A stretch of DNA of 60,896 nucleotides from Spirochaetes bacterium RBG_13_51_14 (GCA_001829455.1 MIBH01000009.1:2263-63158); one strand, 5' to 3'. Positions 9,685 to 59,621 are shown, numbered from the stretch's first letter. Made by a program: numbers and translations. The notes: generated from the sequence alone by a model not told the origin.

Positions 9685-10542
9685 CTACCCCTCATTCTTC
9701 CTGCCGATATCCTCGATTTTCCTCAACAGACCAGCCCCCTCCTTCTTCTCCACAAGGCTGTAATACTGAAGGGCAATGCCGACGAGTATGATGACGCTCA
9801 GGAAAGAACTGAACTGGTATATTACCCCCGCGATGATGAATAGCACCCGGTAGAATGAACCGGTCATATCGGCCTTATGAAACACGGCTGTAAAGGTCAG
9901 TATAAAATTGGGAAGACCGAAGATCCATCCCGCGGCACCCATGATAATTGAAAGAAGAAAAACCAGTCCGAAGGTGAACCACCAGTTTCCCTTCATAAGC
10001 CTCATGCTTCTCCTCAGGGCCTCAAAAAAACTATTTCGTTCCTGTATGCGGATAATGGGAACCATCGTTACCACAACGGCGAAATAAATCCCGGGTATTA
10101 TCAGCAGAATAATAGAAAAAAACAGGACAAAAAAACTTCCGACACTGGTGAAAACAATCATCCAGAAATCCCTTCTGATTGCTTTCCAGAGATCGTCGAA
10201 CGTTATCGCGCCCACGTTTTTTTCAGGGTACAGCACCACAAGCTCGTATGCAATGAGCGTGATGAAGGTATAGCTCAGAATACCGAACATGATAATGAGC
10301 AGGTACCGGAGGGTGAAGATACCGGCGAAGGCGCCCCCCATCTCGCTGTTCAGATTCATTGAAACGGTATCAGCACTATGGAGTCCCAGAAGGATTCCCT
10401 GTATCGGTATGATCGGCCCCGTGATGATGAGTATCGCCTTGAACAGGAGTGCCACATTCTGGCGCAGGAATGCAAAGGTGTCATTGATGATTGCGCCGAA
10501 ATCGCGGGCCTTTTTCAGTTCAATTTTTTCTGTCTGGTTCAT
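9685..10542 (-). CDS. polytopic membrane protein, family unassigned
   Basis: About six hydrophobic segments. The ATG at 10542 is preceded by AAGGAG. Overlaps the 3' end of the upstream gene by 23 nt. Confidence 0.7.
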   Translation of the reverse strand: MNQTEKIELKKARDFGAIINDTFAFLRQNVALLFKAILIITGPIIPIQGILLGLHSADTVSMNLNSEMGGAFAGIFTLRYLLIIMFGILSYTFITLIAYELVVLYPEKNVGAITFDDLWKAIRRDFWMIVFTSVGSFFVLFFSIILLIIPGIYFAVVVTMVPIIRIQERNSFFEALRRSMRLMKGNWWFTFGLVFLLSIIMGAAGWIFGLPNFILTFTAVFHKADMTGSFYRVLFIIAGVIYQFSSFLSVIILVGIALQYYSLVEKKEGAGLLRKIEDIGRKNEG

Positions 10543-11500
10543 GTGCAAGCTCCTTTATATTTAGAGTGAGTGGGTATACGATGTAATAAAAAATCACAAA
10601 TATCAGCGAGGCTCCGATGATACCGAGCGACAGGGGCCGCGGCATGCTCGTGTACCGGGTCACGAATCCTTCGAGGAGGGCCGCCACGACGAACACGGGA
10701 ATGACGCCAATGAGTATCTTGAGGCCGTCCCGGGCTCCCCGCTGGAATGACGCGAGGCGCGAATAGGTGCCGGGGAAAAGGATGCCGTTGCCGATCACGA
10801 TGCCCGCGCCGCCGGCGACTATCACCGCCGTTATCTCCAGGGTTCCGTGGATCCATATGCTCAGCAGGGATGTCGCGAGGAGGCCCTTCTGGTAGAAGAA
10901 ATAATGAAACGCGCCGAGCATCACGCCGTTGCTGAAAATGACATAGCCCGCGCCGAAAGAAAAGAGCACCCCGCAGGCGAATGCCGTCAGCGCCACCATG
11001 ATGTTGTTCGCCGTGACCCCCAGAAACATGTTCATATTGTTCATGGATTTGTAGACCGCCATTGGGTCGCCCTTCTCGATGTTCTCCATGGTCATCTTGA
11101 CGTAGGTGTCGCCCAGGATGAGGCGCACGAAGCCATCGTCGTTGGCGGACGACACAACGCCGACGAGGACAGAAACCGCGAACACGCACATAGAAACGAG
11201 CAACTCTTTCCGGTGAGCCCTGAAAAGCCGCGGCTGTTCCTGGCTCCAGAACGTCCTGAGCCGCTTCCGCTCTTCTTTCCTGCTCCTGAAAATGGCCTGG
11301 TGGAATTTCGCTGTCAGGCCGTTCAGGTATGTGGTGATCGTGCTCCCGGGGTAAAATGTCTTCGCGTAGGAGAGGTCGTCGGTAAGCTCTATATAGAGCT
11401 CGGCAATCTGGTCGGGGCTTGACTTTTTCCGCGCCTTTATCAAAGACTCGAACCGGCCCCATTTATCCGCGTTCTGCTGTAAAAATTGTATCTCTTTCAT
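10520..11500 (-). CDS. SpoIIM-like (DUF95) membrane protein
   Basis: N-terminal soluble segment, then NNIMVALTAFACGVLFSFGAGYVIFSNGVMLGAF and more TM helices typical of the stage II sporulation protein M family. Confidence 0.75.
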   Translation of the reverse strand: MKEIQFLQQNADKWGRFESLIKARKKSSPDQIAELYIELTDDLSYAKTFYPGSTITTYLNGLTAKFHQAIFRSRKEERKRLRTFWSQEQPRLFRAHRKELLVSMCVFAVSVLVGVVSSANDDGFVRLILGDTYVKMTMENIEKGDPMAVYKSMNNMNMFLGVTANNIMVALTAFACGVLFSFGAGYVIFSNGVMLGAFHYFFYQKGLLATSLLSIWIHGTLEITAVIVAGGAGIVIGNGILFPGTYSRLASFQRGARDGLKILIGVIPVFVVAALLEGFVTRYTSMPRPLSLGIIGASLIFVIFYYIVYPLTLNIKELAHEPDRKN

Positions 11501-11697
11501 TCACCCGTTCATCCGTAATCTGCTGTTACCTCGCCCTCTCCCCCATCGCTGCGCGAAACGTGGAATACAATCTCTTCACTAAAATTAAGACGCCTAATAA
11601 ATACCACCGCGTATCTGCACGCACCAGCGCGGCACGCGGCTGTCCCATAAGCCCCCTATATCCCCCAGAGGGGGACATTTTCGCCCAATTTGGCCTG

Positions 11698-11740
11698 GAA
11701 AGCCCCCCTTTGGGGGGGTTGGGGGGAACTTTTTAGAAAA
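11698..11740 (-). terminator. C6/G7 hairpin element directly 3' of the lipid-kinase gene; member of the C/G-tract repeat family
   Basis: Minus strand reads ..GTTCCCCCCAACCCCCCCAAAGGGGGGCTTTCC. About 37/40 nt identical to 28257-28294. The T-run is short. Confidence 0.4.
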
Positions 11741-11743
11741 CCG

Positions 11744-12673
11744 CTATACGTATACCAACCGCACCTGCGGGCCGACTTCCGCGACCAGGGTGCCTTTCGC
11801 TTCATACAGATCGCCGTCCATGGTATAGAGCATCTTCTTATCGCTCGTGATGCTTACTTTTTTTCCGATGGTGTCAAAGACATACGGATGCTTGACCGGC
11901 GTTCCTGTTCTAATGTTCCAGAGGTTTTTAACGATATCAGACGGCTCGCACCCCACGGAAAGGACATGGAAGGTCCCCTCCTCTTCATAGGCGCGGTGGA
12001 GCGGCTTGAACCCGATGCCGATGTCGTCGACCGTTGCCGCGATGACGGCGATAAAGTCATGATGCGGCACCACGTTCCCGTCGATGACGACCTTGCAGTT
12101 CAGCCTGTCAAACAGGGTTCCCACGTCGGCGCCGAAAGCGGCGCCCCGCACCGCCAGCCAGATGGTCTTCAATGCTTTCGTCGGACCGGTCCCCTCGCCG
12201 CGGTAATACTCTGACAGAAAATTCGCGGTCATGCCTGTCCCGAAGATAAAGCAGTATTTGTCATCGACCCGTATGGTGTCGCGGACGAAGATCTTCGGAT
12301 TGCCGTTCTGCTTTAATATCGCAATGAGCCTTTTCAGCAGCTGTCCCGGTTTTCCTTTGAGATTGATGGTCCGGGACTGGGTATTCATGGTGCCGGCCCG
12401 GAGATGCAGGATGGGCGGTATCGGATCCTTTTTGTATATGTTGATAAACCGCGACAGCACGTGGTGGTTGGTGCCGTCGCCGCCGCAGACCGCGGCATAG
12501 GGCAATCCCAGCTTCTTGAACTCTTTAATGACGGGATCGATTTCAGCAATGCTGTTGGTGACCCGTACGTCCGCGAATCCCTCCGCAATATCCGAAAAGT
12601 ATTCAAGCGGGTTAATATTCATTTTTTTGACGCCGTGTGCGTGCGGGTTGATAATGACACCGACCTTTTTCAT
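11744..12673 (-). CDS. diacylglycerol/lipid kinase family protein (YegS/BmrU-like)
   Basis: DAGK catalytic-domain pattern VIINPHAHG ... AAVCGGDGTNHHV. Confidence 0.85.
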   Translation of the reverse strand: MKKVGVIINPHAHGVKKMNINPLEYFSDIAEGFADVRVTNSIAEIDPVIKEFKKLGLPYAAVCGGDGTNHHVLSRFINIYKKDPIPPILHLRAGTMNTQSRTINLKGKPGQLLKRLIAILKQNGNPKIFVRDTIRVDDKYCFIFGTGMTANFLSEYYRGEGTGPTKALKTIWLAVRGAAFGADVGTLFDRLNCKVVIDGNVVPHHDFIAVIAATVDDIGIGFKPLHRAYEEEGTFHVLSVGCEPSDIVKNLWNIRTGTPVKHPYVFDTIGKKVSITSDKKMLYTMDGDLYEAKGTLVAEVGPQVRLVYV

Positions 12674-39059: not shown

Positions 39060-39320
39060 ATGAATATCTATGCATCCAAAACAGGCCATACTTTTTATAC
39101 GCTTGCCGATTCTGAAAAAAGAAATCCTTATCAGATTGCACCAAAAAGGATTTATAAGAATTTTGAGAAAAACCGGCGCTCAACCGCCGCAGCCTCAGGC
39201 CGGGATCGAAACAGAACCGGCATTGATGCCATTATTACATTCTTCAGGGGCACCGTCGTAACCGGCTGCGACGGAACAATTGAATGGAATACCAGAAAAC
39301 TGTTTTCCGTCCCGGAGTAA
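39060..39320 (+). CDS. hypothetical 86-aa protein
   Basis: AGGAG lies 5 nt upstream of the ATG, 25 nt after the micro-ORF. No motif recognised. Confidence 0.5.
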   Translation: MNIYASKTGHTFYTLADSEKRNPYQIAPKRIYKNFEKNRRSTAAASGRDRNRTGIDAIITFFRGTVVTGCDGTIEWNTRKLFSVPE

Positions 39321-39395
39321 CGAAAAACGCAGATATTCCCCGCCAGATCGTGAACAGAACCGGGCTCATCTGTCAACATTAAACGAGACAAAAAG

Positions 39396-39476
39396 GAACA
39401 GAGCTGCCGCACACAACACGCACCACGAACCACAAAAAGCTCTCCCCACACCAGACATGGCTCTGTTCTTTTTTTT
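39396..39476 (+). terminator. long-loop hairpin plus T8 run; terminator or 3' end of a small RNA
   Basis: GAACAGAGC (39396-39404) pairs with GCTCTGTTC (39460-39468) and is followed by TTTTTTTT. The loop is CA-rich and holds an alternative AGAGCT/AGCTCT pairing. Confidence 0.4.
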
Positions 39477-39549
39477 ATCCGCGCAATAAGCCGCACAGGG
39501 AAAACCCCTGTAAAAATAACAAACCCCTCATCAAGGGGCTCTCTCGTTT

Positions 39550-39633
39550 TGCCGAAGGAGGGACTTGAACCCTCATGGTGTTGCCACCGGCGGATTTTGA
39601 GTCCGCTGCGTCTACCAATTCCACCACTTCGGC
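39550..39633 (-). tRNA. trnL: tRNA-Leu (anticodon CAA), class II with a long variable arm, no encoded CCA
   Basis: GCCGAAGTGGTGGAATTGGTAGACGCAGCGGACTCAAAATCCGCCGGTGGCAACACCATGAGGGTTCAAGTCCCTCCTTCGGCA. Acceptor GCCGAAG/CTTCGGC, anticodon stem GCGGA/TCCGC, T-arm GAGGG-TTCAAGT-CCCTC. Confidence 0.95.
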
Positions 39634-39648
39634 GCATGTATCAGCACA

Positions 39649-45519: not shown

Positions 45520-47007
45520 CTATATATACTTCGGCTCCTTATACGAGTACATGTCGTGAACGCCGCCTTCGAGCTGGGCCGACGGCGACCGCAGCTCGAA
45601 CCGAAGCTTGCCGGCAACGAGGTTCTCATGCAGGGTCTTCACGTCCCGCGTGCCCATGTCCTGAAAAGAATGCTTGAGCCCCTGAATCAGGTACGGCACG
45701 AATTCAAACAGCGATCCCTTGTCCAGCACCGCGCCGGACACCCCCTGAACCACTTTGATCTTGGTGTCCTCGGCGAAGTACCGTTTGGAGCCGCCGGCCT
45801 CCAGCGCCTCCTGCGACGCCATGCCGCGGTACTTTTTGAGGCGCACGCCGTTCTCGTAAAAGTATTCGCCCGGCGCCTCGTTCGTGCCGGCGAACATGGA
45901 GCCCATCATGACCGATGACGCGCCTAGGGCAAGCGCCTTTGCAATATGGCCGATGGTGGATATTCCGCCGTCCGCGATGACGGGGATTGAATGTTTACGG
46001 GCGTGGCGCGCGGTGCGGTACACGGCGGTGGCCTGCGCGCGCCCCACTGCCATGGTCATCTGCGTGGTGCAGATAGAGCCCGGACCCATGCCGATCCGCA
46101 GGCCGTCCGCTCCGGCCTTGATCAGGTTCTCACACTGCTCGCCGGCAACCACGTTCCCGCCGATGACATCGATCTTTGGGTATTTCTTTTTGATGTATCG
46201 TATCATGTCGGTCTCGTAGATCGAATTGCCCTGCGCCGCGTCAACGACGACGACGTCAACGCCGGCTTCCACCAGAGCGTCGAGCCGGTCCCACGATTCT
46301 TCTCGCGTCGCCAGGGCGGCGCCCACCATGAGCTGTTTCTGCGGATCCTTCGATGCGAGGGGATACTCGCGGTTTTTTAGTAAATCTTTGCGGGACATGA
46401 GGGCCACGAGCCTTCCCTTGTCGTCCACGATGGGAAGCTTTCCCTTCTTCGAGTTTTTCAAAATCTGGTTCGCCTGGCTCAGTGAAATCCCCTTCTTCGC
46501 CGTTACCAGATCGGTGGTCATAACATCGGACAGCTTCTTGGTCCGGTCTGTTTCGAAATCAATGTCGCGGTTGGTGACGATTCCCAGGAGGAGGGAATTG
46601 AGCCTGCCGTCCTCTGTGATCGGGATGCCGGAAAAGCCGTATTTTTCCTTTATCCGGTCAATATCGGCCAGAGTGTTGCCCGGTGAAAGCACGATGGGAT
46701 CCATGATGAAGCCGTTCTCGAAGCGCTTGACCTTCCGGACCTCCGCAGCCTGCTCCTCAATGGTGTTATTGTAGTGGATGATCCCGATGCCTCCGAGGAG
46801 GGCGAGGCCGATGGCCATCTTCGATTCCGTCACCGTGTCCATGGGACTGGACACCAGCGGATTCTTGATTTTTATATTCCTGGTCAAATTCGATTCAAGG
46901 ATGACATCCTCGGGCGAAAAATCGATAAAGCCGGGGAGAATGATAAAATCATTGTAAGCCCAACCGTTTTCTTTGGTAAATAATTCTTCAGCGGAAAAGC
47001 CGTCCAT
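45520..47007 (-). CDS. guaB: IMP dehydrogenase
   Basis: Full-length match to the family pattern, including tandem CBS domains and the active-site loop [10 protein letters not shown] (here [10 protein letters not shown]). Confidence 0.96.
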
Positions 47008-47328: not shown

Positions 47329-47709
47329 ATGGATGGGACGCCATTAATGGGCCACTGTAAAAGAAGAGGGTACTGCTGTCAGGACGTACGCCTGGCGGAA
47401 TCGCCCGATCTGTTGCGAGCGGCGTATGAATTCTGGAGGCGATCGTCAAAAATCGACCCTCGATTTTCTGAAATCTACATTATATTTCCCATGCTTGTTT
47501 TCAAGCACGAAAGTCCGGATGAGAACCTTCCCTATCATTACCGGTGCAAACACTTCACCACCGATGAACAAGGCCTTCCGTCCTGCTCCATTTATCCCTA
47601 TCGTCCGCGCATGTGCCGGGATTTTCCCTGTTACGAGGACGTGATGCACCTGGTCCGTGACGAGCCGCTGTCGCCCTATGATGGATGCGGGTACAATGAT
47701 CCGGATTGA
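47329..47709 (+). CDS. YkgJ-family Cys-cluster (zinc/iron-chelating) protein
   Basis: CKRRGYCC ... CSIYPYRPRMCRDFPC pattern. Confidence 0.75.
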   Translation: MDGTPLMGHCKRRGYCCQDVRLAESPDLLRAAYEFWRRSSKIDPRFSEIYIIFPMLVFKHESPDENLPYHYRCKHFTTDEQGLPSCSIYPYRPRMCRDFPCYEDVMHLVRDEPLSPYDGCGYNDPD

Positions 47710-47856: not shown

Positions 47857-50800
47857 ATGGAATATATCAACATCAGCCACAAACGGGATTATGAATTCAA
47901 GATACACACGGTATCGAGCGAGCATCATGAGTCCTATACCGTGTTCAACATTATGCGCGACAAGGGCTACTGGTGCAGCAGAAAGAGCGACGAGAATATG
48001 ACTGAATACATAATCATCGACCTCCAGAGCGCCGTCACCATCGATTACATTGAGATGGCCGCGTCTCCCAACGGACCGAAAACCTTTCCCCGCGATTTCC
48101 GCTTCGAGGGAAGCCTTGACGGCGATTGCTGGATGGTGATGCATGCGGAAAATAAACTGGAGCTGGAATCTGACCGATACCGTCTTGACATCCCCCTCGC
48201 AATCGTCCGCTACCTGAAGATCCTTATCACCGCACATCAGCAGAGCGATGAAGGGTTTTATTCCGAAATCGGCCGTGTCCGGACTGGTATCGCCGGCGTT
48301 AGCACTATCAGGTCGAGCGGCGCCTCGTCTGCCGACCGAGGCCCGGACGCCGTATTAAAGGACGATCCGGAAACCTACTGGGAATCAGAACCCAAATCAC
48401 ACGCCGCCAAGGAATCGCTCCTTATCGACATGGGCAAGCTCTTCCACATCAACCGGATCATACTCGGCTCGGCCTCGAAAGGATTCCCCGAGAGTTTTTA
48501 TATTGAGGCAAGCGCGGACAACAACGTGTGGATGCCGCTCCTTGAGGAAAAAAACTTCAAGGCCCAGGCGAACAAAAAATACTACTGGAAGACCGATATC
48601 ACGCCGGCCCAGTATGTCCGCATTGAGGCTAAGGGGGTAAAATATCCAGAAGGGAAGTACGGCGTCCAGATTTCTCACGTGGAGATTTCCGCAGCGCCTT
48701 TTAATCCATTCCATACCCATAACATCGGCGACCTGACGCCGTACGCTTCAATATTCCAGGCCGGCATCGTGCGACTTTCCAAGGACGGTGACGATAGCCC
48801 GGGTACCGCCATCCAGGGAAACGACCGGCGACTGCGTGATGCTTCCGCCATATTCAAGGGCATTGTCCAGATGGCGGATGACGGCGACGCCACAAAAGGC
48901 CTGGCTATCCAGGCATCGGACTCGCGCCTGAAGCAGGCAACCGACCTGAAGCCGGGCATTGTCCGTCTCGCTCATGACCGGGAAACAAAGGCCGGGTCTG
49001 CGGTGCAGGGCAGCGATTCGCGCCTCAGGGACGCAACCACCGAAAATTTTGGAATTGTCAAATTGTGCCCCGACGGCATGTACAAGGAAAACGCGGCGGT
49101 AACGGGAAACGATTCAAGGCTGCATAAGGCCGCGGTTGAATCATACGGCATCTGCAGGCTCGCGCCCGAAGGCGGCACTGCGTCCGGTACCGCGGTACAG
49201 GCGAATGACAAGCGTTTACGCGAAGCCACAACCACTTTCAAGGGGATCGTCGAGCTGGCGGAAGACGGCGAGGACGTCGCCGGCGTGGCAGTACAAGGAA
49301 ACGACCGGCGCCTCAGGGACGCAACCACCACTGCAAAAGGGATCGTCGAGCTGGCCGAGGATGGCGAGGACGCTGCCGGCGTGGCGGTCCAGGGTAACGA
49401 CCGGCGCCTCAAAATCGCAACGGAACATTCAAAAGGAATTGTCGAGCTGGCAGAAAATGGCGAAGCGAATCCCGGGGTTGTCGTCCAAGGCAGCGACCGG
49501 CGCCTCAGGGACGCAACCACCACTGCAAAAGGGATCGTCGGGCTGGCCGAGGACGGCGAGAACAAGGCGGGCGTCGCCGTCCAGGGCAGCGACAAACGGC
49601 TCAAGGACGCAACCACCACTGCAAAAGGGATCGTCGAGCTGGCCGAGGACGGCGAGAACAAGGCGGGCGTCGCCGTCCAGGGCAGCGACAAACGGCTCAG
49701 GGACGCAACCACCACCACAAAAGGGATCGTCGAGCTGGCCGAGGACGGCAAGAACAAGGCGGGCGTCGCCGTCCAGGGCAGCGACAAACGGCTCAGGGAC
49801 GCAACCACCGCCGCCAAAGGCATCGTGAAGCTAGCTAAGGACGGCGAAGACAAACCGGGTGTTGCCGTTCAGGGCAGCGACAAACGGCTTAAAAACGCAA
49901 CTGCATCCTCCAAGGGTATCGTGAGGCTGGCTGAAGACGGAGAAACAAATTCCGGCGTGGCAGTCCAGGGCAGCGACAAACGGCTCAGGGACGCAACCAC
50001 CATATCGAAAGGCATTGTTGAACTGGCTGAAGACGGAGAGGACGCCCCCGGGGCGGCCGTGCAGGGAAACGACAAGCGACTCAAACCGGCCACCGAATCC
50101 GCCCCGGGCATTGTTGAACTTGTTAAAAATAATGAATCAAAGCCAGGCCGGGTGGTGCAGTCAACGGACGAGCGCCTCTCCAATGCCCGGCCTCCCCTGC
50201 CCCACACCCATGAGTACGCCCCCATCAGCCATGAATTCAGCTCCCATACCGGAACCATATCGGTCCGGAACACCAAGCACGAAGTCTTTCCCGAAATAAC
50301 TCCTCCGTCAGATGGCTCTGCGATCATATACGCGAAAAACGAGTCCGTGGAATCCGGTTCGATCGGGATTTCGGGCATCGCCGGAATATCTGCGGAGAAA
50401 AATATTCATTCCTATGGCATGGTGGGGCACGGCGGCCATGTCGGCGTGCGGGGGCAGTCATCCGGAGATCCGGACGGGGAGAACAGGGGATGCGGCGTCA
50501 TGGGACTTTCACGGTTCGGAGCCGGCGGAGTCTTCTCCAGCGAGCATAACTTTTCCCTGGTGGCCGACGGCTTTGGAACCATCGGGCAGTATGACGACTC
50601 CGTACACCTGGCCGGCAGCGGCGACGCGCTGTTCGTGAACGGCGCTTCCGTTTTCCAGGGTACAATGCACATTCACAACACGGGAACCGGCGAGACCGAG
50701 AACTTCCCCGCCAACATGGTGGAGCTCTTCGAGGTGGATGATGCCGAGTATATCGCGCCGGGCGACCTACTCGTGGCGAGCGACACGGGCAAATCGATAC

Positions 50801-51114
50801 TGTCGCGCTCCCGGAACGAATACAGTCGCGCCGTGATCGGCATTGTCTCGGGCAATCCAACCATTATCATCAACAACAGCGGGAAGGAAAAAAAGGTCTA
50901 TCCCGTGGCCCTGGCCGGCACGGCGCTCTGCAAAATTGATGCGCGGAAAAATCCGGTTCGTCCCGGGGATCCGGTGGTCACTTCCGATACCCCCGGGTGC
51001 GGGATGGCAGGCGCAGTAGATTCTTTCGATAAAATCGGAACGGTTATCGGGAAGGCCCTTGATGCTCTTGAGGATGGGATTGGCTTCATCCCGGTTTTTA
51101 TAACACACCAGTAA
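47857..51114 (+). CDS. 1085-aa repeat protein: two discoidin (F5/8 type C)-like modules, 15 x 32-aa tail-fibre-like repeats, Gly-rich C-terminal domain
   Basis: Long uninterrupted ORF. YWCS../YWESEP.. modules with the IDLxxxxxI..I pattern. Repeat consensus GIVELAEDGExxAGVAVQGSDKRLRDATTTAK. No signal peptide and no clear SD. Confidence 0.9.
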   Translation: MEYINISHKRDYEFKIHTVSSEHHESYTVFNIMRDKGYWCSRKSDENMTEYIIIDLQSAVTIDYIEMAASPNGPKTFPRDFRFEGSLDGDCWMVMHAENKLELESDRYRLDIPLAIVRYLKILITAHQQSDEGFYSEIGRVRTGIAGVSTIRSSGASSADRGPDAVLKDDPETYWESEPKSHAAKESLLIDMGKLFHINRIILGSASKGFPESFYIEASADNNVWMPLLEEKNFKAQANKKYYWKTDITPAQYVRIEAKGVKYPEGKYGVQISHVEISAAPFNPFHTHNIGDLTPYASIFQAGIVRLSKDGDDSPGTAIQGNDRRLRDASAIFKGIVQMADDGDATKGLAIQASDSRLKQATDLKPGIVRLAHDRETKAGSAVQGSDSRLRDATTENFGIVKLCPDGMYKENAAVTGNDSRLHKAAVESYGICRLAPEGGTASGTAVQANDKRLREATTTFKGIVELAEDGEDVAGVAVQGNDRRLRDATTTAKGIVELAEDGEDAAGVAVQGNDRRLKIATEHSKGIVELAENGEANPGVVVQGSDRRLRDATTTAKGIVGLAEDGENKAGVAVQGSDKRLKDATTTAKGIVELAEDGENKAGVAVQGSDKRLRDATTTTKGIVELAEDGKNKAGVAVQGSDKRLRDATTAAKGIVKLAKDGEDKPGVAVQGSDKRLKNATASSKGIVRLAEDGETNSGVAVQGSDKRLRDATTISKGIVELAEDGEDAPGAAVQGNDKRLKPATESAPGIVELVKNNESKPGRVVQSTDERLSNARPPLPHTHEYAPISHEFSSHTGTISVRNTKHEVFPEITPPSDGSAIIYAKNESVESGSIGISGIAGISAEKNIHSYGMVGHGGHVGVRGQSSGDPDGENRGCGVMGLSRFGAGGVFSSEHNFSLVADGFGTIGQYDDSVHLAGSGDALFVNGASVFQGTMHIHNTGTGETENFPANMVELFEVDDAEYIAPGDLLVASDTGKSILSRSRNEYSRAVIGIVSGNPTIIINNSGKEKKVYPVALAGTALCKIDARKNPVRPGDPVVTSDTPGCGMAGAVDSFDKIGTVIGKALDALEDGIGFIPVFITHQ
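48763..50202 (+). repeat. 15 tandem 96-bp coding repeats inside the large ORF
   Basis: Period measured from GGGATCGTCG recurring at 49531, 49627 and 49723. Units 6-11 are almost identical at the nucleotide level. Confidence 0.95.
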
Positions 51115-51151: not shown

Positions 51152-51775
51152 CTATATGCCCATCTGCCTGAGTATGGCGAGCTCCACTCTATTGAATACC
51201 CGGAACTGGTAATCGCTCAATTCCTTGGTTATCTTTTTATCGACATAGGTTATCCTGCGGCAGTAGGGTTTGTCCTCATACCGGTCAACCCACATGACTA
51301 TGATGGTCTGGTTCCCGTTCCACGCCAGTGCCCCCTGGTTTTTATGCAAGTTTTCATTCGTGCAGGGGCCGTATTTATCTTCTATTCGTTTTTTCACTTC
51401 CGCCATCGTGAGATACGGGAATTTCAGCGCAACGTAAAACAGCGTGCCTTCATCGGCCTTTTCCTGCTCCCCGGGTTTCTTTTCTTCCTCCTTCTTGCCG
51501 GAATCCTTGACAGCATCGGCGCTTTCGAGGGTCGGATCAACGTAGAAGAACCCGTAATGGTATTCCAGCTCCCCTTCCTTTGAGAGTATTATGCTTTTTT
51601 CATCGGTAAAGACAATCTTCCCCTTTATTTTATCAATCGCGTTAGAGAGCTTTGTGCCCCACGTCATATTTTCATATCCGCCGGGAATGGCGCTGATGGT
51701 TTTTGTGTCGATCTTTTCCTGGCCGTTCGCAGCTGCGAAAAGGAGAAGAATCGTCATGAGAAAAAAACGTTTCAT
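51152..51775 (-). CDS. hypothetical secreted protein
   Basis: Signal peptide MKRFFLMTILLLFAAANG. 207 aa with an acidic/Lys-rich linker. No motif recognised. Confidence 0.65.
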   Translation of the reverse strand: MKRFFLMTILLLFAAANGQEKIDTKTISAIPGGYENMTWGTKLSNAIDKIKGKIVFTDEKSIILSKEGELEYHYGFFYVDPTLESADAVKDSGKKEEEKKPGEQEKADEGTLFYVALKFPYLTMAEVKKRIEDKYGPCTNENLHKNQGALAWNGNQTIIVMWVDRYEDKPYCRRITYVDKKITKELSDYQFRVFNRVELAILRQMGI

Positions 51776-52806: not shown

Positions 52807-53907
52807 TCACAGACTGCTTCCCGTTTTCCACAGGATGTAGCTGATGATATTGGAATCGTTTTCGTTCAGTTTGATTTTTTTCGCGGCCAGCAAGCCATTG
52901 ACGCGCTGAACAAAAATATCTCCGATAAGCGTCAACCGGTGGCTGATCCGGTCAAAATATTCGCATGGAAGGAAATCGAGAACCATAATCAAGGCGCACG
53001 CCTGTTCTTCATCGTCAACCAGCTGCTTCATGCTGTCAAGTCCGGCATATAAGAGGATATTGCAGACGGAATTATACACGTCCGGGAGGTATGAATTATA
53101 ATAATCGGCGGCGGGCACGGCCTGGAGCATGCGCAAGATCCATGTGAGCGCCCGGGATTTTTTAAGAGGATCGGCGCTCGATTCGATAAACTGCAGGGCG
53201 AACAGGAGTGAATAGAGATCGCCGTGAATTTCATTGTTCTCAATGAAGGCGCCGTCGAAGGATGTCGCGTATGCAATGAGCCTGTTGTATTCTTCGTTAT
53301 CCGTCATCAGCAGGTCCCAGTACCTGAAAGCGGCGCCAAAATTTTTCAATCCGGCCAGTGCCAGAATTTTCACCTCGATGCCGCCCCGTTCCTTGGCGAT
53401 GTTATAGTAAAAATTGAGAAGATCTTCGCGGTCGAACGACAGGAGCGCGTGAAGTATCGACCGCTGCAACACCGGCTGTTCGTAGTATTCGACCATCAGC
53501 AGGGGGATATACTCATTGAAACCGCACTGCCGAATGATGATGGTGTCTTCATGCGTGAGCAGTCTCTTGTTGAGATTGCTTGAATAGGTCTCCTTTCCGC
53601 AGAAAATATCAAGGTATATGGCCAGACGGGAAATCAGGTCTTCGGTTATGTATCCTCGCACCGTGCTGTCCGGCGGCATGTTTTCCGTGAGCTCGAATGC
53701 GATCTGGTCGAGAAGCTCAATAAAATTTATTGATATTTCGTCGGGGTTTTCCTGTACCGGGCGGCGGCATTCTTCCAGGTGCGATGAAGTAAAGGATGCT
53801 ATCAGTTGCAGAGCCTCGATTTTTGAAGAGGCTGATCTTATTTTTTCATGACAAGCATGGGCAAACTCGTTGATTCCCTCTCCCCGTAGTTGCAGAACGC
53901 TATCCAT
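52807..53907 (-). CDS. hypothetical all-helical (HEAT/ARM-like?) protein
   Basis: 366-aa ORF, no signal peptide, no motif recognised. Confidence 0.6.
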   Translation of the reverse strand: MDSVLQLRGEGINEFAHACHEKIRSASSKIEALQLIASFTSSHLEECRRPVQENPDEISINFIELLDQIAFELTENMPPDSTVRGYITEDLISRLAIYLDIFCGKETYSSNLNKRLLTHEDTIIIRQCGFNEYIPLLMVEYYEQPVLQRSILHALLSFDREDLLNFYYNIAKERGGIEVKILALAGLKNFGAAFRYWDLLMTDNEEYNRLIAYATSFDGAFIENNEIHGDLYSLLFALQFIESSADPLKKSRALTWILRMLQAVPAADYYNSYLPDVYNSVCNILLYAGLDSMKQLVDDEEQACALIMVLDFLPCEYFDRISHRLTLIGDIFVQRVNGLLAAKKIKLNENDSNIISYILWKTGSSL

Positions 53908-54059: not shown

Positions 54060-54993
54060 TCAGTCATTCATCAAGGAGCCCTTTATCGTTCCTGTAAGCC
54101 CGGTAGGTTTATCGATATAGCTTAGAGAACCCCACGCGTTGACCGCCCTGCCGCTCGCGGTCATGCCCAGAAGAGAAGGAACGGGTTCGCCTCCCTCTTT
54201 TATCGAGTTGACGACATCCTGGCTGGTGTAGTCCGGATTATTGGCTTTAATCATTGCGGCCAGCCCGGTAACATACGGCGTCGCCATCGACGTGCCCCGG
54301 GCGATTCTGTATGCGTCGTTTCTTTTCCATACCGCTCTCAGATAAAAATCTTTGATTTCGATTCCGGCATAAGCACTATTGGTGCCCGACGTGTTTGTAG
54401 TTGACGCCCGTATCCAGAACCGCGACCACAACCGAGCTGCAATCCGTTGCATGGTCCCACGCACGTTCGGCGTCCATATCATAGCCGGCCGTTCCGGGAT
54501 TGTTGGCCGTGATTGCGCCATCGCCGGAGATGGTCTGGCCGGTGTTCTTCAGTCCCCACAGCTGTTCGTACAGGGGATCGTTCGGTACCGTGTTTAAAAT
54601 CCGATAAATGTAATTTGGCTGGATGAACCCCGCGCATGCATAGATTGTCTTTGAAGTCGGGGATTTGGCGCCGCGTATATACGGCGCATAAACGGCGACC
54701 GCGGATCCGGAATTCGGTGTAACGGTCAGTGTATACCCGCCGCCGTCACTGTTGACCGCCCGTTCCCTGTTCGCTTCCCAGGAAAACGCAACGCGTCTCA
54801 TATTCCCGGGGCAGGATACGCCGAAAATATCGATGTCCGGTTCAGCCAATCCGAGCAGAAGCATGTTGTTCTCTGAATTGTCATTGCCGCCGTCCGTTCC
54901 GCATCCGGTTTGGCCCGCTACCATCAAAACGATAGTAAGGAAAAATATAAAAATAACATATAATTTTGTTGAGATACATTCCGATCTTTTCAT
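54060..54993 (-). pseudogene. decayed S8 (subtilisin-like) serine protease lipoprotein gene: frameshift plus loss of the His/Asn core
   Basis: ORF 54376-54993 has lipobox AGQTGC and the Asp motif [10 protein letters not shown], then stops. The overlapping ORF 54060-54521 in another frame carries GTSMATPYVTGLAAMI. The Asp and Ser motifs lie only about 125 nt apart, and no HGTH motif appears in any frame. Confidence 0.7.
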
Positions 54994-55720: not shown

Positions 55721-56743
55721 ATGCCGCGGATACGGAAATATCTCCTCATCATAATACTCATCCTGAAAACTCAGCTCTCCGCGCAACTGCTGATCAATGA
55801 GCTGGTTACCGAAACCACCAGCGACTGGGTTGAATTAACGCTGGCGAGTCCGACGCAGCAGTCGATGGATATCTCCGGTTTATACGTCACCATGTATTAT
55901 GGAACCAACGAGCCCCTGGCGGCCGAGCCAGTCACCATATACAGTTATGATCGCGCGGAAACGCCCTATGACGACCGCTATGTTGTGGTTCATCTCACCA
56001 AACCGGACATCCCTGACGAGACCGACCGTACCGGCGATACCAACGGCAACGGATATATCGATATATACTGCAATAATTATTTCGGCAGCCTCTGGAACAC
56101 AGACGGCGTTGTAGCTATTGACAGTGACGACGATCCGGCGAACGGGGGGATTATTGATTTCGTGTTTTACTCCAACCGAGACGGGAGTCCCAGCGAAGCG
56201 ATACTGGCGTATGTGACCGGCGCGCAGTCATATGGTCAGTGGCGGGGGTTTTCCGGCGAGAGCCCTCAGGAATGCGCCGCATTCATCGGAAAAAAAGGGC
56301 TCCCCTCGTACATGAGCCTGTCACGGAAGAATCGGGCTGACACCAATTCCGCCGACGATGTTGCCGTGACCAACATCCAGACGCCCGGCGCGCCGAACAT
56401 CACCGCGCCATTGTTCATGGGAAACCGCCTCTTCAAGCCCCTGCGAAAAAAAATCACCATCATACCCGGTCACTGCCTGTTCGGCAGCGGCTGCATACCG
56501 GTTTTCGTGTTTGCGCCCTGCGTCATAAAATTGCGCATCTTCACGGTTACCGGCATCGCTATCCACGAGTCTCCCCTGTTCCCGTCGGTGAATCCGGGAC
56601 TGTGTACACTCTTCTGGAACCCCCTTCTGCAGCACAGGCGCCCGCCCACGGGATTGTATCTGTGTAAAATCGAGGCGGTTAATCCTTCCCTTCGCCTCGC
56701 CGAGGAAGAGATAATCTACATCCTGCTGAGCCATTACCGATGA
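55721..56743 (+). CDS. secreted lamin-tail-domain (LTD) protein with a C-terminal beta-sandwich (FlgD-Ig / sorting-domain-like) segment
   Basis: Signal peptide ..ILKTQLSA. LLINELVTETTSDWVELT..DISGLYV is the LTD N-terminal pattern. The C-terminus IKLRIFTVTGIAIHE..LFWNP..PTGLYLCKIEA resembles Ig-like sorting domains. AAGGAGG lies upstream. Confidence 0.7.
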   Translation: MPRIRKYLLIIILILKTQLSAQLLINELVTETTSDWVELTLASPTQQSMDISGLYVTMYYGTNEPLAAEPVTIYSYDRAETPYDDRYVVVHLTKPDIPDETDRTGDTNGNGYIDIYCNNYFGSLWNTDGVVAIDSDDDPANGGIIDFVFYSNRDGSPSEAILAYVTGAQSYGQWRGFSGESPQECAAFIGKKGLPSYMSLSRKNRADTNSADDVAVTNIQTPGAPNITAPLFMGNRLFKPLRKKITIIPGHCLFGSGCIPVFVFAPCVIKLRIFTVTGIAIHESPLFPSVNPGLCTLFWNPLLQHRRPPTGLYLCKIEAVNPSLRLAEEEIIYILLSHYR

Positions 56744-58035
56744 TACCGATAAGCATCCTCCTCTGCCTTGCCACCGCGGCCGTATCCGCATTCGATTACC
56801 GGGAAACGCCGCCGGCTGCGCTTTTCCCGTTCTGCCAGGCAGCCGCGGACGCGTCCCTCCCCGACGCGATTTCCAACCCCGCGTACCTGCCGTCGATCCG
56901 GTATCCGTACCTCCACTGTTCCGGGGGTATGCCCTATACCCTCGATGAACTCTATTCCAGCACCATCCGGATCGGATACGGCACGCACGGCGTCGGAATT
57001 CAGGCGGTCTGGAACCGGTTCGGATTCGCGCAGTACCTGGAGCACATTGTCGAGGGCAATATCGGATACATGCCGGTCAAGTACGTCTCAATCGGCGCCG
57101 GCGTATATTACTACAATCTGACCATGGATACGGTGGAAATCTCCCTGTCGAGCCATCTGGTGGACGGTCGCGCTTCGATCCTCGTGTCCCCGTGCAGATG
57201 GATCGATCTTTCTTTTTTACAGGAAAATATCGGTTCGCTCCTATGCCCGAATAGGAGGGACCTGCTCTTCCCCGAATGGAGCGCCGGAGCCGCGCTCAGG
57301 CCGGTGCAGGGCTTCACGCTCCTGTATAACATGAACCGCACGGCCGTCGGATACGTGAACTCCATTTCAGCATCGGCAAACGTCCTGAAATATTTTTCCG
57401 TTAAGGTCGGATACGCACGTGAAGCAAACACCTATTCGGCATCCCTGTGCGTTCTATACCGGTACGTCGCTGCATCATACGGATTGAAATATCACCCGCA
57501 TCTCGGCTTCACCCATTCAGTGGGTATCACGCTGTCGACGCAAGACATAAACATTGAGTCGCTCGGTTACGGCCCCCTTATGTCGAAAATCCGGAAACTT
57601 CACGACGGGAGAAAAATCGACATCAACACCTGCTCCTATGACGATCTCCTGGGCGTGCGCGGTTGCGACCGGCACTATACCGAACGAATCATGAAATACC
57701 GGAAAACAATCGGGCCCCTGACTCGAACGGGCCTTCTGCAGATCGGCATGTCGGAAAAAGAAGTGAACCATATGCTCGAGTATATCACGGGCCTCGCACC
57801 TGAGGATCCCGATTCGGGCATCGGACGCCGCGGCGGATCTGACCTGGAATGCAAACAGAAACGGCTGTTTAGAGATCTTATCGAGCTCGGTCTCCCCGCT
57901 GCTACGGCGCTGGAGATCGCCGAACTGGCCGTAACGGGGGATTATCGAACAATCCAGAACCGAATCAATTCACTGCCAGCGCTGGACGCGCGAAAAAAGA
58001 AAAGGGCACAGGAGCTATGCACCGGAGCACGCTAA
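56740..58035 (+). CDS. beta-barrel-like envelope protein fused to a C-terminal ComEA-type helix-hairpin-helix region
   Basis: ATGA start/stop overlap with the LTD gene. Signal peptide, SNPAYLP motif, and alternating hydrophobic strands for about 270 aa. Then IDINTCSYDDLLGVRGCDRHYTERIMKYRKTIGPL (HhH). Confidence 0.65.
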   Translation: MIPISILLCLATAAVSAFDYRETPPAALFPFCQAAADASLPDAISNPAYLPSIRYPYLHCSGGMPYTLDELYSSTIRIGYGTHGVGIQAVWNRFGFAQYLEHIVEGNIGYMPVKYVSIGAGVYYYNLTMDTVEISLSSHLVDGRASILVSPCRWIDLSFLQENIGSLLCPNRRDLLFPEWSAGAALRPVQGFTLLYNMNRTAVGYVNSISASANVLKYFSVKVGYAREANTYSASLCVLYRYVAASYGLKYHPHLGFTHSVGITLSTQDINIESLGYGPLMSKIRKLHDGRKIDINTCSYDDLLGVRGCDRHYTERIMKYRKTIGPLTRTGLLQIGMSEKEVNHMLEYITGLAPEDPDSGIGRRGGSDLECKQKRLFRDLIELGLPAATALEIAELAVTGDYRTIQNRINSLPALDARKKKRAQELCTGAR

Positions 58036-59621
58036 TCGGCGCCGCACTGCTCTGCTGCAGCCCGGCGTATGCCGCTGAACCGATATGGTCCGATCCCGAG
58101 CTATCGATTCAGGCGGAATACCGGCAGGACACGCTGGATTACGACGACGTTGAAAAAAAGTTCTGCAGCGAAAAAGCCCGCCTATCCTTTGGCAAAAGCT
58201 CCGCGAGTTTCACCCATGTCTACATCAATGCGACCGGGGAACACCGCTTCACCTGGAACCTGACGATCAGCGGCATTCCACCCTATTTCGACTGCATTCT
58301 GGGCCATTACTACGCAAACTTCGGGGCCGGACTGCTGGTAGGCAGGAAAAGAGCCCTGTCGTCGGACCAGTTTTCCCGGCGCCTGATTGTCTCAAGAGGA
58401 AGTCCCTTCCTGCCGTGCAGCAGCGGTAATCCTCTCTACAGCTTCCATGGCGCCGCGGCAGGTTTTACCGTTCCGGTCGGCGGCATCTCCCTTTCAGTCC
58501 GGGGATTTGTTTCCTTCCGGAACCGATTCGCCAGAAATGATGCGTATGCTCCCGATTCCACCGGCAATTCGTTCAATTCCATCCTCGGAAGATTACAAAA
58601 GGATTTTCGCTACTCGGAACCGGTGGAAATCAATGATTATGGATCCGTCGTCGACCTTCGCATTTCAGAGCATTTTTTTTTGCAGTCGTACTTTCTGTAT
58701 GCCGGGATCCGTCGCGCCGTCAACCGCTCGTTCCTCTGGAACTACGGCGATGGGGGCCTGCCGCTGGGCGAGAAGGCATTCTATTGTTTCGGATTTTTCT
58801 TCCAGTACCGGGACGACTATATCACTCTCTTCATCGAGCTTGGTTTCCCGAACAAGGTCCTCTCCACTCCCGCCGGCATGACCAGAAGCGTGCGCGACTT
58901 CGGCATCCTGTACGGCCTGACCTTCCGGCATCGAGCCTGTGAACTCTCCTTTGCGGGGAAGAACACGGGCAACAATTTTTATTCTCCCTACAGCTCCGGC
59001 GTCAGTCACGCGGAAACAGCGTGTGCGATCGGCATAAGGATCCGGCCGCTGCCGGAGCTGTGCCTGGGATGTGGTTTTTTCGGGGAGAAAAAAATATCAT
59101 CCGCCGCCAACCAGTCGTATCTCCCCTCCATCATAAGGGAACAGGTGTTCTTTAAATACGGCGCTGCCCGCAAAGGATCCGTTTCCGCGCGGCTCTCATT
59201 CGTTGAACAGGAGAAAAAGACCGGCATTGACCGCTATATTCAGATCAAATCATCGGCAAAAATATATGCGAAGAAATCCGTGCTCTTTTCCTTTTCAGGC
59301 ACCGCGCAGCGCAAAGGGGACGGCCGCTATTCGGGATCAATAAACGCCGGGACATCGCTGTGCATGCTGAGATATCTCACCGTTACGCTTTTCTATTCCC
59401 GGTTTTTTATCGGACGGGACAACCCGCTTTACACATCGATATCCCCGCGCCCCAATTCCATCACGCCCGGAATGCTCGTGAAGGCCACGTCTCACATGGC
59501 GACCTGCCGCCTGACGGCGCGGTATCACGACGTGCGGATTTCGGCGCGCTACCAGCATCAATTCACCGGAACAGGCTCCCGGCAGTACCGGATCGAGGTT
59601 TCTGCGGGATGCATCCTGTAG
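58017..59621 (+). CDS. large beta-barrel-like exported protein, family unassigned
   Basis: AGGAG lies 3 nt upstream. Signal peptide ..CCSPAYAA. Aromatic-rich alternating pattern throughout. 19-nt overlap with the upstream gene. Confidence 0.6.
   Translation: MHRSTLIGAALLCCSPAYAAEPIWSDPELSIQAEYRQDTLDYDDVEKKFCSEKARLSFGKSSASFTHVYINATGEHRFTWNLTISGIPPYFDCILGHYYANFGAGLLVGRKRALSSDQFSRRLIVSRGSPFLPCSSGNPLYSFHGAAAGFTVPVGGISLSVRGFVSFRNRFARNDAYAPDSTGNSFNSILGRLQKDFRYSEPVEINDYGSVVDLRISEHFFLQSYFLYAGIRRAVNRSFLWNYGDGGLPLGEKAFYCFGFFFQYRDDYITLFIELGFPNKVLSTPAGMTRSVRDFGILYGLTFRHRACELSFAGKNTGNNFYSPYSSGVSHAETACAIGIRIRPLPELCLGCGFFGEKKISSAANQSYLPSIIREQVFFKYGAARKGSVSARLSFVEQEKKTGIDRYIQIKSSAKIYAKKSVLFSFSGTAQRKGDGRYSGSINAGTSLCMLRYLTVTLFYSRFFIGRDNPLYTSISPRPNSITPGMLVKATSHMATCRLTARYHDVRISARYQHQFTGTGSRQYRIEVSAGCIL

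Follow-up and report, generated by a model that had tools for sequence, protein, structure and literature searches.

The stretch of DNA analysed here, called the window, comprises 60,896 nucleotides of Spirochaetes bacterium RBG_13_51_14 (GCA_001829455.1, MIBH01000009.1:2263-63158). At positions 47857 to 51114 it contains a single gene, the fibre gene, for a protein that joins two lectin-type discoidin domains to a shaft of phage tail-fibre repeats and to a C-terminal module of a kind found at the ends of phage tail fibres. A first-pass annotation, made from the sequence alone, had described the product as an orphan with an unassigned C-terminal domain, and neither description survived the present analysis. 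The features of the gene are listed below, with predicted local distance difference test (pLDDT) values from a monomer model and with residues numbered as in the window protein.

47857 to 51114, plus strand: complete coding sequence, 1085 aa, 115.7 kDa; two discoidin domains, an HxH motif, 15 fibre repeats, a second HxH motif, a Gly-rich stem and a tandem beta-tulip C-terminal module
47896 to 48267, plus strand: discoidin / F5-8 type C (CBM32-like) domain 1, residues about 14-137; Pfam PF00754, with a PDB profile match over residues 9-137
48289 to 48711, plus strand: discoidin / F5-8 type C (CBM32-like) domain 2, residues about 145-285; best Pfam stretch 153-260, PDB CBM32 match over 142-289
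48709 to 48723, plus strand: first HxH motif, FHTHN, residues 285-289, just 5' of the repeat array; near-invariant in the clade of the window
48763 to 50202, plus strand: fibre repeats of 32 aa, fifteen in number and all in register, of the mixed alpha-beta type seen in T4 gp34/gp12, residues 303-782, consensus GIVELAEDGExxxGVAVQGxDKRLRDATTTxK
49243 to 50083, plus strand: the most homogeneous stretch of the array at the DNA level (Tandem Repeats Finder: 96-nt period, 8.8 copies, 80% matches, score 766)
50200 to 50217, plus strand: second HxH motif, PHTHEY, residues 782-787; conserved as PHTHDY in Leptospira
50203 to 50712, plus strand: stem and Gly-rich region, residues 783-952, pLDDT below 50; common to many members of the phage C-terminal family
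50710 to 50733, plus strand: ANMVELFE, residues 952-959, aligned to S691/D692-FAE695-YFE of phi29 gp12, with Glu kept and Asp replaced by Asn
50713 to 51111, plus strand: C-terminal tandem beta-tulip module, residues 953-1085, pLDDT 80-96; phi29 gp12 D4-like and related to Peptidase_G2

The open reading frame (ORF) was uninterrupted, as had been claimed, and begins at the first start codon past the upstream stop, a position that was identical across the full-length homologues. The N-terminus (MEYINISHKRDYEF...) is free of any hydrophobic segment and leads directly into discoidin domain 1. In agreement with the first-pass annotation, no signal peptide was seen in the window protein or in any homologue, and no GGAGG-like Shine-Dalgarno sequence was found 5' of the fibre-gene ATG. 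The window protein has no lipobox. Searches against Pfam and NCBIfam found in it no domains of RTX type or of the type I, type V or type IX secretion systems (T1SS, T5SS, T9SS), and no such genes occurred among the conserved neighbours; nor did either database yield a match to the endosialidase-type chaperone Peptidase_S74. A virion- or baseplate-docking N-terminal domain was also missing, with the discoidin domain beginning about 10-15 residues after Met1 in all homologues.

The two discoidin modules that had been recognised by eye in the first 290 or so residues were found by profile searches as well. Pfam F5_F8_type_C (PF00754) matched over two stretches with 90.4 bits against a gathering cut-off of 28.2 (E 1.3e-25), and when a family profile was compared with the PDB, residues from about 10 to 290 aligned with CBM32 domains, with neuropilin b1/b2 and with the lectin domains of sialidases. 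NCBIfam NADase_discoid gave a weak match over discoidin domain 1. With two domains well over the Pfam threshold, the head region resembles the discoidin/CBM32 lectins of Clostridium perfringens glycosidases and of the Micromonospora sialidase (1eut), and the tandem arrangement resembles neuropilin b1b2. Unlike the CBM32 domains of glycosidases, the pair in the window protein is joined to a phage fibre and not to an enzyme. The heads were the least conserved part of the protein (42-44%), followed by the repeats (61-68%) and the C-terminal module (68%).

The shaft consists of exactly the fifteen back-to-back units that had been counted before, without an indel and in perfect register. The array matched the PHROGs family phrog_910 'tail collar fiber protein' (E 5.6e-20). 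A tblastn search added gp34, the protein of the proximal long tail fibre in T4-type phages that are RB16-like (E 9e-8; 28.9% identical across 280 aa), and there was a further weak match to the T4-type gp12 structure 5lye (E 0.03); the likeness to phage tail-fibre repeats that the first-pass annotation had pointed out is thereby borne out. The gp34 and gp12 repeats are mixed alpha-beta fibrous domains of about 33 residues (gp34 744-776), each opened by a conserved Gly that begins a beta-strand and ended by a helix on the threefold axis (Granell et al., PMC5537660). Judged from its sequence, the window unit (G-IVELA ... SDKRL, 32 aa, leading Gly) fits this description: like T4 gp34 and gp12, it would place the conserved Gly and a beta-strand (GIVxLA) first and a short helix last within some 32-33 residues. 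In contrast to the few irregular copies of T4 gp34 and gp12, the window protein has 15 near-identical copies in register. It also differs from those proteins in not being part of a baseplate or virion, and from T4 fibres in having no separate chaperone of the gp57/gp38 type near its gene.

The lengths of the homologues increased in steps of 32 aa (861, 893, 925, about 985, about 1017, about 1050, 1085 and about 1113-1120), corresponding to 8-16 repeat units, of which 16 was the commonest number. Since the length classes differ by whole units, and units 6-14 are near-identical at the DNA level, shaft length varies through the gain and loss of entire repeats. The homogeneous part of the array (49243 to 50083) points to recent duplication or conversion of units. 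Over positions 48001-50000 the array coincides with a strong AT skew (+0.254) and a GC content of 0.589. Both reflect the repeated Asp/Gly/Ala/Lys-rich codons and not a foreign origin; in other parts of the window the GC content varies between 0.40 and 0.60.

An HxH motif stands on either side of the array. The second lies within PPLPHTHEY (residues 779-787), which was present as it had been quoted, along with the quoted C-terminal sequence, and this motif was strongly conserved: both His and the Tyr of PHTHEY, as well as H792 and H797, were invariant in 57 homologues. An HxH motif after the repeats is also a feature of the metal sites of T4 gp12 and gp37. The first motif, FHTHN, is absent from the Leptospira interrogans orthologue.

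The C-terminal region was modelled with AlphaFold2 (AF2) from a 57-sequence alignment. Residues from about 953 to 1085 reached pLDDT 80-96, and the two halves of this predicted domain are detectably duplicated (PGDLLVASDT / PGDPVVTSDT). The 150 Gly-rich residues before it stayed below 50, and this stem presumably folds only within the trimer. A Foldseek search of the PDB with the predicted domain retrieved phi29 gp12, both as premature gp12 and as its C-terminal fragment (3suc and 3gqh, E 7e-4 and 8e-4, probability 1.0), together with the decoration proteins Pam3, BB1, Sf11, lambda gpD and SHP and with MoeA. The same set of proteins makes up the beta-tulip compilation of Stone et al., in which D4 of gp12 is described as two head-to-tail beta-tulips acting as an autochaperone. 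Among the viral models of BFVD the matches included a 'preneck appendage protein barrel' (E 6.5e-11, TM 0.67) and the C-termini of many long proteins of uncultured Caudovirales (E 1e-12 to 1e-10). The last 135 or so residues can therefore be assigned, at the level of a predicted fold, to a tandem beta-tulip, autochaperone-like module of the phi29 gp12 type, such as closes off a fibre or spike at its very C-terminus.

By sequence the relationship was visible through a very large family. A profile of the C-terminal 307 residues matched 18,971 cluster representatives (50% identity) at E<=1e-3 and 10,581 at E<=1e-10; nearly all of these matched over the last 150 or so residues only, and the shared stretch in every case formed the far C-terminal end of its protein (180-3300 aa). 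Among 107 diverse C-terminal relatives Peptidase_G2 was the sole recurrent Pfam family, with 21 sub-threshold matches (best 1.8e-5). In IMG/VR a broad-family alignment located at least 371 confirmed loci with the module, and in the loci sampled it stood within tail-fibre modules (phrog_19602, 4492 and 9729, with baseplate-wedge connector neighbours). No match was obtained for the C-terminal region in the PDB by sequence, as a single sequence or as a profile, nor in GenBank phages by tblastn, and patterns specific to the spirochaetes, run against IMG/VR, had no match that could be confirmed. On the basis of the beta-tulip fold matches, the recurrent Peptidase_G2 and the tail-fibre loci of IMG/VR, the C-terminus of the window protein belongs, as a divergent member, to a very large family of phage tail-fibre C-termini that is related to Peptidase_G2. 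This family of about 150 aa, common in phage tail-fibre modules and in bacteria of the candidate phyla radiation, lies under the Pfam and NCBIfam thresholds and carries a near-invariant A-D-C-A-E-x-F-D motif and an invariant Cys (..CKVDA..).

A close structural parallel is gp12, the pre-neck appendage (tail spike) of Bacillus phage phi29, in which a tandem beta-tulip (PF11962, D4) forms the very end of a trimeric fibre or spike, as the predicted module would in the window protein. The window protein differs from gp12 in scoring under the Pfam gathering cut-off and in having no beta-helix enzyme domain. Instead of a collar-binding coiled coil it has a lectin N-terminus, and its gene is cellular and not viral. 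The trimeric beta-tulip decoration proteins (lambda gpD, P21 SHP, P74-26 gp87, Pam3, BB1) are also similar, being among the best PDB matches of Foldseek. Unlike these small, stand-alone capsid binders, the window protein is encoded without capsid genes and belongs to a family of tail-fibre C-termini.

Mature phi29 gp12* ends at residue 691. The D4 module, of the MEROPS class 'glutamic peptidase G2', is reportedly driven to autoproteolysis by Asp692 and Glu695, a finding ascribed to Xiang et al. in 2009. The hhalign alignment to phi29 gp12 was used solely for placing this motif, and through it, weak as it is, ANMVELFE falls on S691-D692-F-A-E695-Y-F-E. The conserved Glu of the window protein then aligns with Glu695 of SDFAEYFE, as in phi29. 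The Asp beside the scissile bond is substituted, unlike in phi29, so that the Asp and Glu pair of an S/DxxE self-cleavage motif appears incomplete and self-cleavage is doubtful. In the phage C-terminal family the two positions of A-D-C-A-E-x-F-D/E are nearly fixed (Asp in 104/107, Glu in 107/107). In the clade of the window (n=57) the Asp position was occupied by Asn (37), Gly (14), Ser (4) or Asp (2), with Glu kept in 56/57. In the Leptospira clade it was the Glu position that had changed, to Arg or Lys in 75/78, or to Ala if the alignment is shifted by one residue. As aligned, both cellular clades thus carry an incomplete Asp/Glu pair, broken differently, at Asp in the clade of the window and at Glu in Leptospira. 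Given this broken pair, and given that conservation within the protein is highest in the C-terminal module, the chaperone is probably left uncut as a functional end of the mature fibre; its 68% conservation, compared with 42-44% in the discoidin domains, would fit a role in the mature protein.

The protein is not an orphan. A protein search gave 348 matches, the best 120 of which were nearly all full-length (47-73% identity) and came from metagenome-assembled genomes of Spirochaetota. A scan of one genome per species found at least 104 relatives, all in Spirochaetota or Leptospirales, and a query with a shorter relative of 839 aa reached cultured Leptospira of all subclades. More than 120 homologues are full-length. 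Several hundred proteins across the Leptospirales form the family, among them those of L. interrogans, L. kirschneri, L. noguchii, L. santarosai, L. borgpetersenii, L. weilii, L. fletcheri, L. wolffii, L. broomii, L. ryugenii, L. ilyithenensis, L. bouyouniensis and others. The Leptospira homologues are annotated as 'discoidin domain-containing', 'carbohydrate-binding' or 'F5/8 type C domain protein', and no characterised adhesin or S-layer family claims the window protein.

The L. interrogans orthologue, AAS72032.1 (LIC20001/LB001; 838 aa), aligned co-linearly with the window protein from end to end (E 1e-128, identity 39-43%). With a computed mass of 91.0 kDa, and by its annotation, it agrees with LIC20001 as listed in a ClpB-trap pull-down. 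Known as a 'conserved hypothetical / carbohydrate-binding F5/8 type C domain protein', it has the same module order as the window protein: two discoidin domains, eight 32-aa repeats, PHTHDY, a Gly-rich stem and the C-terminal module. It differs in having 8 repeats in place of 15, in being without the first HxH motif, and in having lost the Glu and not the Asp at the cleavage-like site. The gene lies on the 355-kb replicon (chromosome II), beside parAB and metF, and the neighbour of 207 aa found next to the window gene (see below) is not near it. The gene for the orthologue is located 3' of parA, parB and an HTH_36 gene and 5' of metF and the hem cluster. A phage-derived gene (10001-12517 of the extracted locus) here adjoins plasmid-like maintenance genes, HTH_36 being replication-initiator-like. 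LIC20001 has been captured by a ClpB trap from the soluble lysate of L. interrogans, and LB001, listed right before LB002 (metF), has been detected in a Triton X-114 (TX-114) proteome, a data set that includes many cytoplasmic proteins; the orthologue thus appears in two mass-spectrometry data sets. LB001/LIC20001 also stands in two bioinformatic lists of predicted surface proteins, in one of them with the sialidase 1eut as fold template. A literature search found no experimental function for LIC20001/LB001.

The housekeeping neighbours named in the first-pass annotation (guaB, a ykgJ-like gene, trxA and dtd) were all recovered. The gene for IMPDH (45520-47007) is 85% identical to a Pfam IMPDH/CBS gene at a related locus (L001), a gene for a CxxCxxCC protein follows at 47329-47709, and trxA and dtd lie downstream. 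The ten largest other ORFs of the window encode ordinary cellular proteins, including a methyl-accepting chemotaxis protein, a SpoIIE/PAS phosphatase, a permease, an AAA ATPase, a polysaccharide flippase and OmpA. No phage structural gene was present within 10 kb on either side at 8 annotated loci on Mb-scale contigs of relatives, nor did the genes that recur beside it at 80 loci, or the large ORFs in the 61 kb of the window, include a tail, baseplate or capsid gene; the absence of phage genes noted before thus extends to the relatives, and no prophage, tailocin or secretion cluster adjoins the gene. When the ORFs of the 80 loci were clustered, the recurrent neighbours were a gene for a protein of about 210 aa (70 loci), trxA (41) and dtd (37), and all others occurred in at most 26 loci. 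The pairwise identity of the fibre C-terminus followed that of Dtd (r 0.84; means 0.58 and 0.59). The housekeeping context, together with this tracking of Dtd, argues for vertical inheritance under purifying selection and against a mobile tail-fibre gene.

Taken together, we favour, at a probability of about 0.6, the reading that the gene encodes a domesticated, self-assembling homotrimeric fibre lectin of phage type that is inherited vertically in the Leptospirales. The module composition, phage ancestry, family distribution, chromosomal context, conservation, variation in repeat number, decayed motif and expression of the Leptospira orthologue are the observations from which it is built. The C-terminal beta-tulip module would trimerise first and would then nucleate the folding of the stem and the repeat shaft from the C- to the N-terminus, as in phi29 gp12. 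For the HxH motifs we propose metal binding on the threefold axis, like that of T4 gp12 and gp37. Six discoidin domains at the trimer's N-terminal end could bind a carbohydrate ligand multivalently, and the shaft would be made longer or shorter from one species to another as entire repeats (8 to 16 in all) are gained or lost. The chaperone module would be kept uncleaved as the functional end of the mature fibre. Because no virion-docking N-terminal domain and no linked particle genes were found, the fibre would act alone, as a glycan-binding adhesin or cross-linker.

Several points weigh against this reading. It is difficult to see how a lectin without a signal peptide or a recognisable export system would come to lie outside the cell, and the capture of LIC20001 from soluble lysate by the ClpB trap fits a cytoplasmic pool equally well. 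Half of the C-terminal region is without a confident model in the AF2 monomer. The match of the window protein to Peptidase_G2 (PF11962) is sub-threshold (17.1 bits against a cut-off of 25, E 0.0037), and hhalign of the C-terminal module with the single phi29 gp12 sequence gave a probability of only 6%. That the module is not cleaved leans on the reported roles of Asp692 and Glu695 in phi29.

One further gene is closely associated with the fibre gene, with which it is convergent.

51152 to 51775, minus strand: 207-aa protein with a type-I signal peptide; directly downstream of the fibre gene in 58/80 loci and within 10 kb in 13 more (71/80)

This neighbour is restricted to the window's clade of uncultured Spirochaetota and was absent near the gene in the Leptospira loci examined. 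It had no match in Pfam, NCBIfam or PADLOC, and its AF2 model (pLDDT 78) had no significant fold match in the PDB (best E 0.019). From the association alone it is a possible functional partner of the fibre.

Other genes near the fibre gene are less constant and are not counted as part of the feature. Three overlapping, operon-like ORFs of 340, 431 and 534 aa (55721-59621, plus strand) and a divergent gene of 366 aa (52807-53907, minus strand) were without a family match except for HHH_3 in the 431-aa protein. The set was found near the fibre gene, on either side, in 17-18 of the 80 loci, and its sequences diverge more quickly than that of the fibre (26-41% identity, against 56% for the fibre in the same comparison). 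A more distant subclade (L002, L003 and L005; for example L005 6324-9961) has four unannotated conserved genes upstream of the fibre gene (about 235, 266, 213 and 180 aa), for which no homologue was found in the window. At 54060-54993 on the minus strand, a pair of short ORFs, of 153 and 205 aa, overlap each other in different frames. The former has only a C-terminal fragment of Peptidase_S8 (subtilase), and the pair may represent a frameshifted or decayed subtilase gene; they had no homologue in the 80 related loci. The sole tRNA of the window is a tRNA-Leu (CAA) at 39550-39633 on the minus strand, and the ORF at 39152-39637 that overlaps it is probably spurious.

The main alternative, improbable in our estimate, is that the protein equips, as its tail or head fibre, a particle domesticated from a phage (for instance a gene transfer agent (GTA), a tailocin or an extracellular contractile injection system) that has its other genes elsewhere in the genome and is released by lysis. 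Every module is phage-derived, lysis would explain the missing signal peptide, and the predicted C-terminal fold also matches decoration proteins that bind threefold sites of the capsid as trimers. The Rhodobacter GTA has accessory fibre and spike genes that are unlinked from its main cluster. A particle of this kind is difficult to reconcile with a protein that starts with a lectin domain where a virion-docking N-terminus would be expected, and with the lack of phage structural genes around the gene in the window, at the 8 annotated loci and among the neighbours at 80 loci. In addition, the gene is core to all Leptospira, and the genus is not known to have a core cluster of tail-like or GTA genes, which is an argument from absence.

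It is hardly likely that the protein has an intracellular role, as a cytoplasmic fibre or scaffold to which some glycan or polymer of the cell interior binds or by which infecting phages are hindered in their assembly. No homologue has an export signal, and ClpB, the chaperone whose trap caught LIC20001 from soluble lysate, is cytoplasmic; that capture could equally mean a folding intermediate. Discoidin/CBM32 domains are typically extracellular lectins, and the stable housekeeping context and slow evolution of the gene are unlike those of defence genes. The PADLOC defence models gave no match for the fibre protein or for six neighbours, which also rules against an anti-phage defence protein.

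A conventional secreted adhesin or S-layer-type protein that uses a known pathway (Sec, T1SS, T5SS or T9SS) is very unlikely. Bioinformatic screens do list LB001/LIC20001 as an outer-membrane or surface-exposed protein, and the conserved 207-aa neighbour has a signal peptide. The published localisations are predictions, however, and the TX-114 set is rich in cytoplasmic proteins. The fibre protein itself has no signal peptide, lipobox or RTX repeats, neither it nor the conserved neighbours offer T1SS, T5SS or T9SS domains or genes, and its C-terminus is predicted to be a folded beta domain and not a secretion tag. Export by T1SS in particular was rejected, with neither RTX repeats nor transporter genes present; the ABC/CbiQ genes beside the fibre gene in one related locus (L003) are of the energy-coupling factor type.

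Finally, an ordinary prophage or tailocin tail fibre with its cluster just outside the window, suggested by the tail-fibre repeat and C-terminal module, is effectively refuted by the recurrence of the gene between the same housekeeping genes in many species and its presence on Mb-scale contigs that are free of phage genes within 10 kb on either side, by a conservation that tracks dtd, and by searches in which the spirochaete-specific patterns had no confirmed IMG/VR match and the C-terminal region matched nothing in GenBank phages. The tests that were run contradict three of these readings: the ordinary prophage fibre, the classical secreted adhesin and the defence protein. The earlier statement that the protein fits no described system stands for its biology, in that no export route, partner particle or published function was found, and falls for its C-terminus, which has a recognisable family.

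That phage fibre modules occur in viruses, tailocins and injection systems is familiar. It is unusual for one fibre gene to persist on the chromosome throughout an entire order of bacteria and to evolve slowly there, the more so as its lectin heads sit at the 'wrong' (N-terminal) end and its self-cleavage site has decayed. A further result concerns the C-terminal family of phage tail fibres: very large though it is, with about 19,000 clusters at 50% identity, it stays under the Pfam and NCBIfam thresholds. In a broader proposal, which we put forward tentatively and consider rather unlikely as a whole, the Leptospirales, pathogenic Leptospira included, would have kept throughout their evolution a tail-fibre gene turned into a stand-alone trimeric lectin. 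The uncleaved chaperone would have become an anchoring or interaction end, a route free of signal peptides would lead to the surface or the environment, and the lectin would serve glycan-dependent adhesion to biofilm matrix, particles or host glycans; or else the gene would be the first visible part of an unrecognised phage-derived particle that is core to the order. For Leptospira, the domain assignment turns LIC20001/LB001, an expressed conserved hypothetical protein found in every subclade, pathogens too, into a set of testable hypotheses: a trimeric fibre, glycan binding, a retained chaperone module, and a length that is set by the number of repeats.

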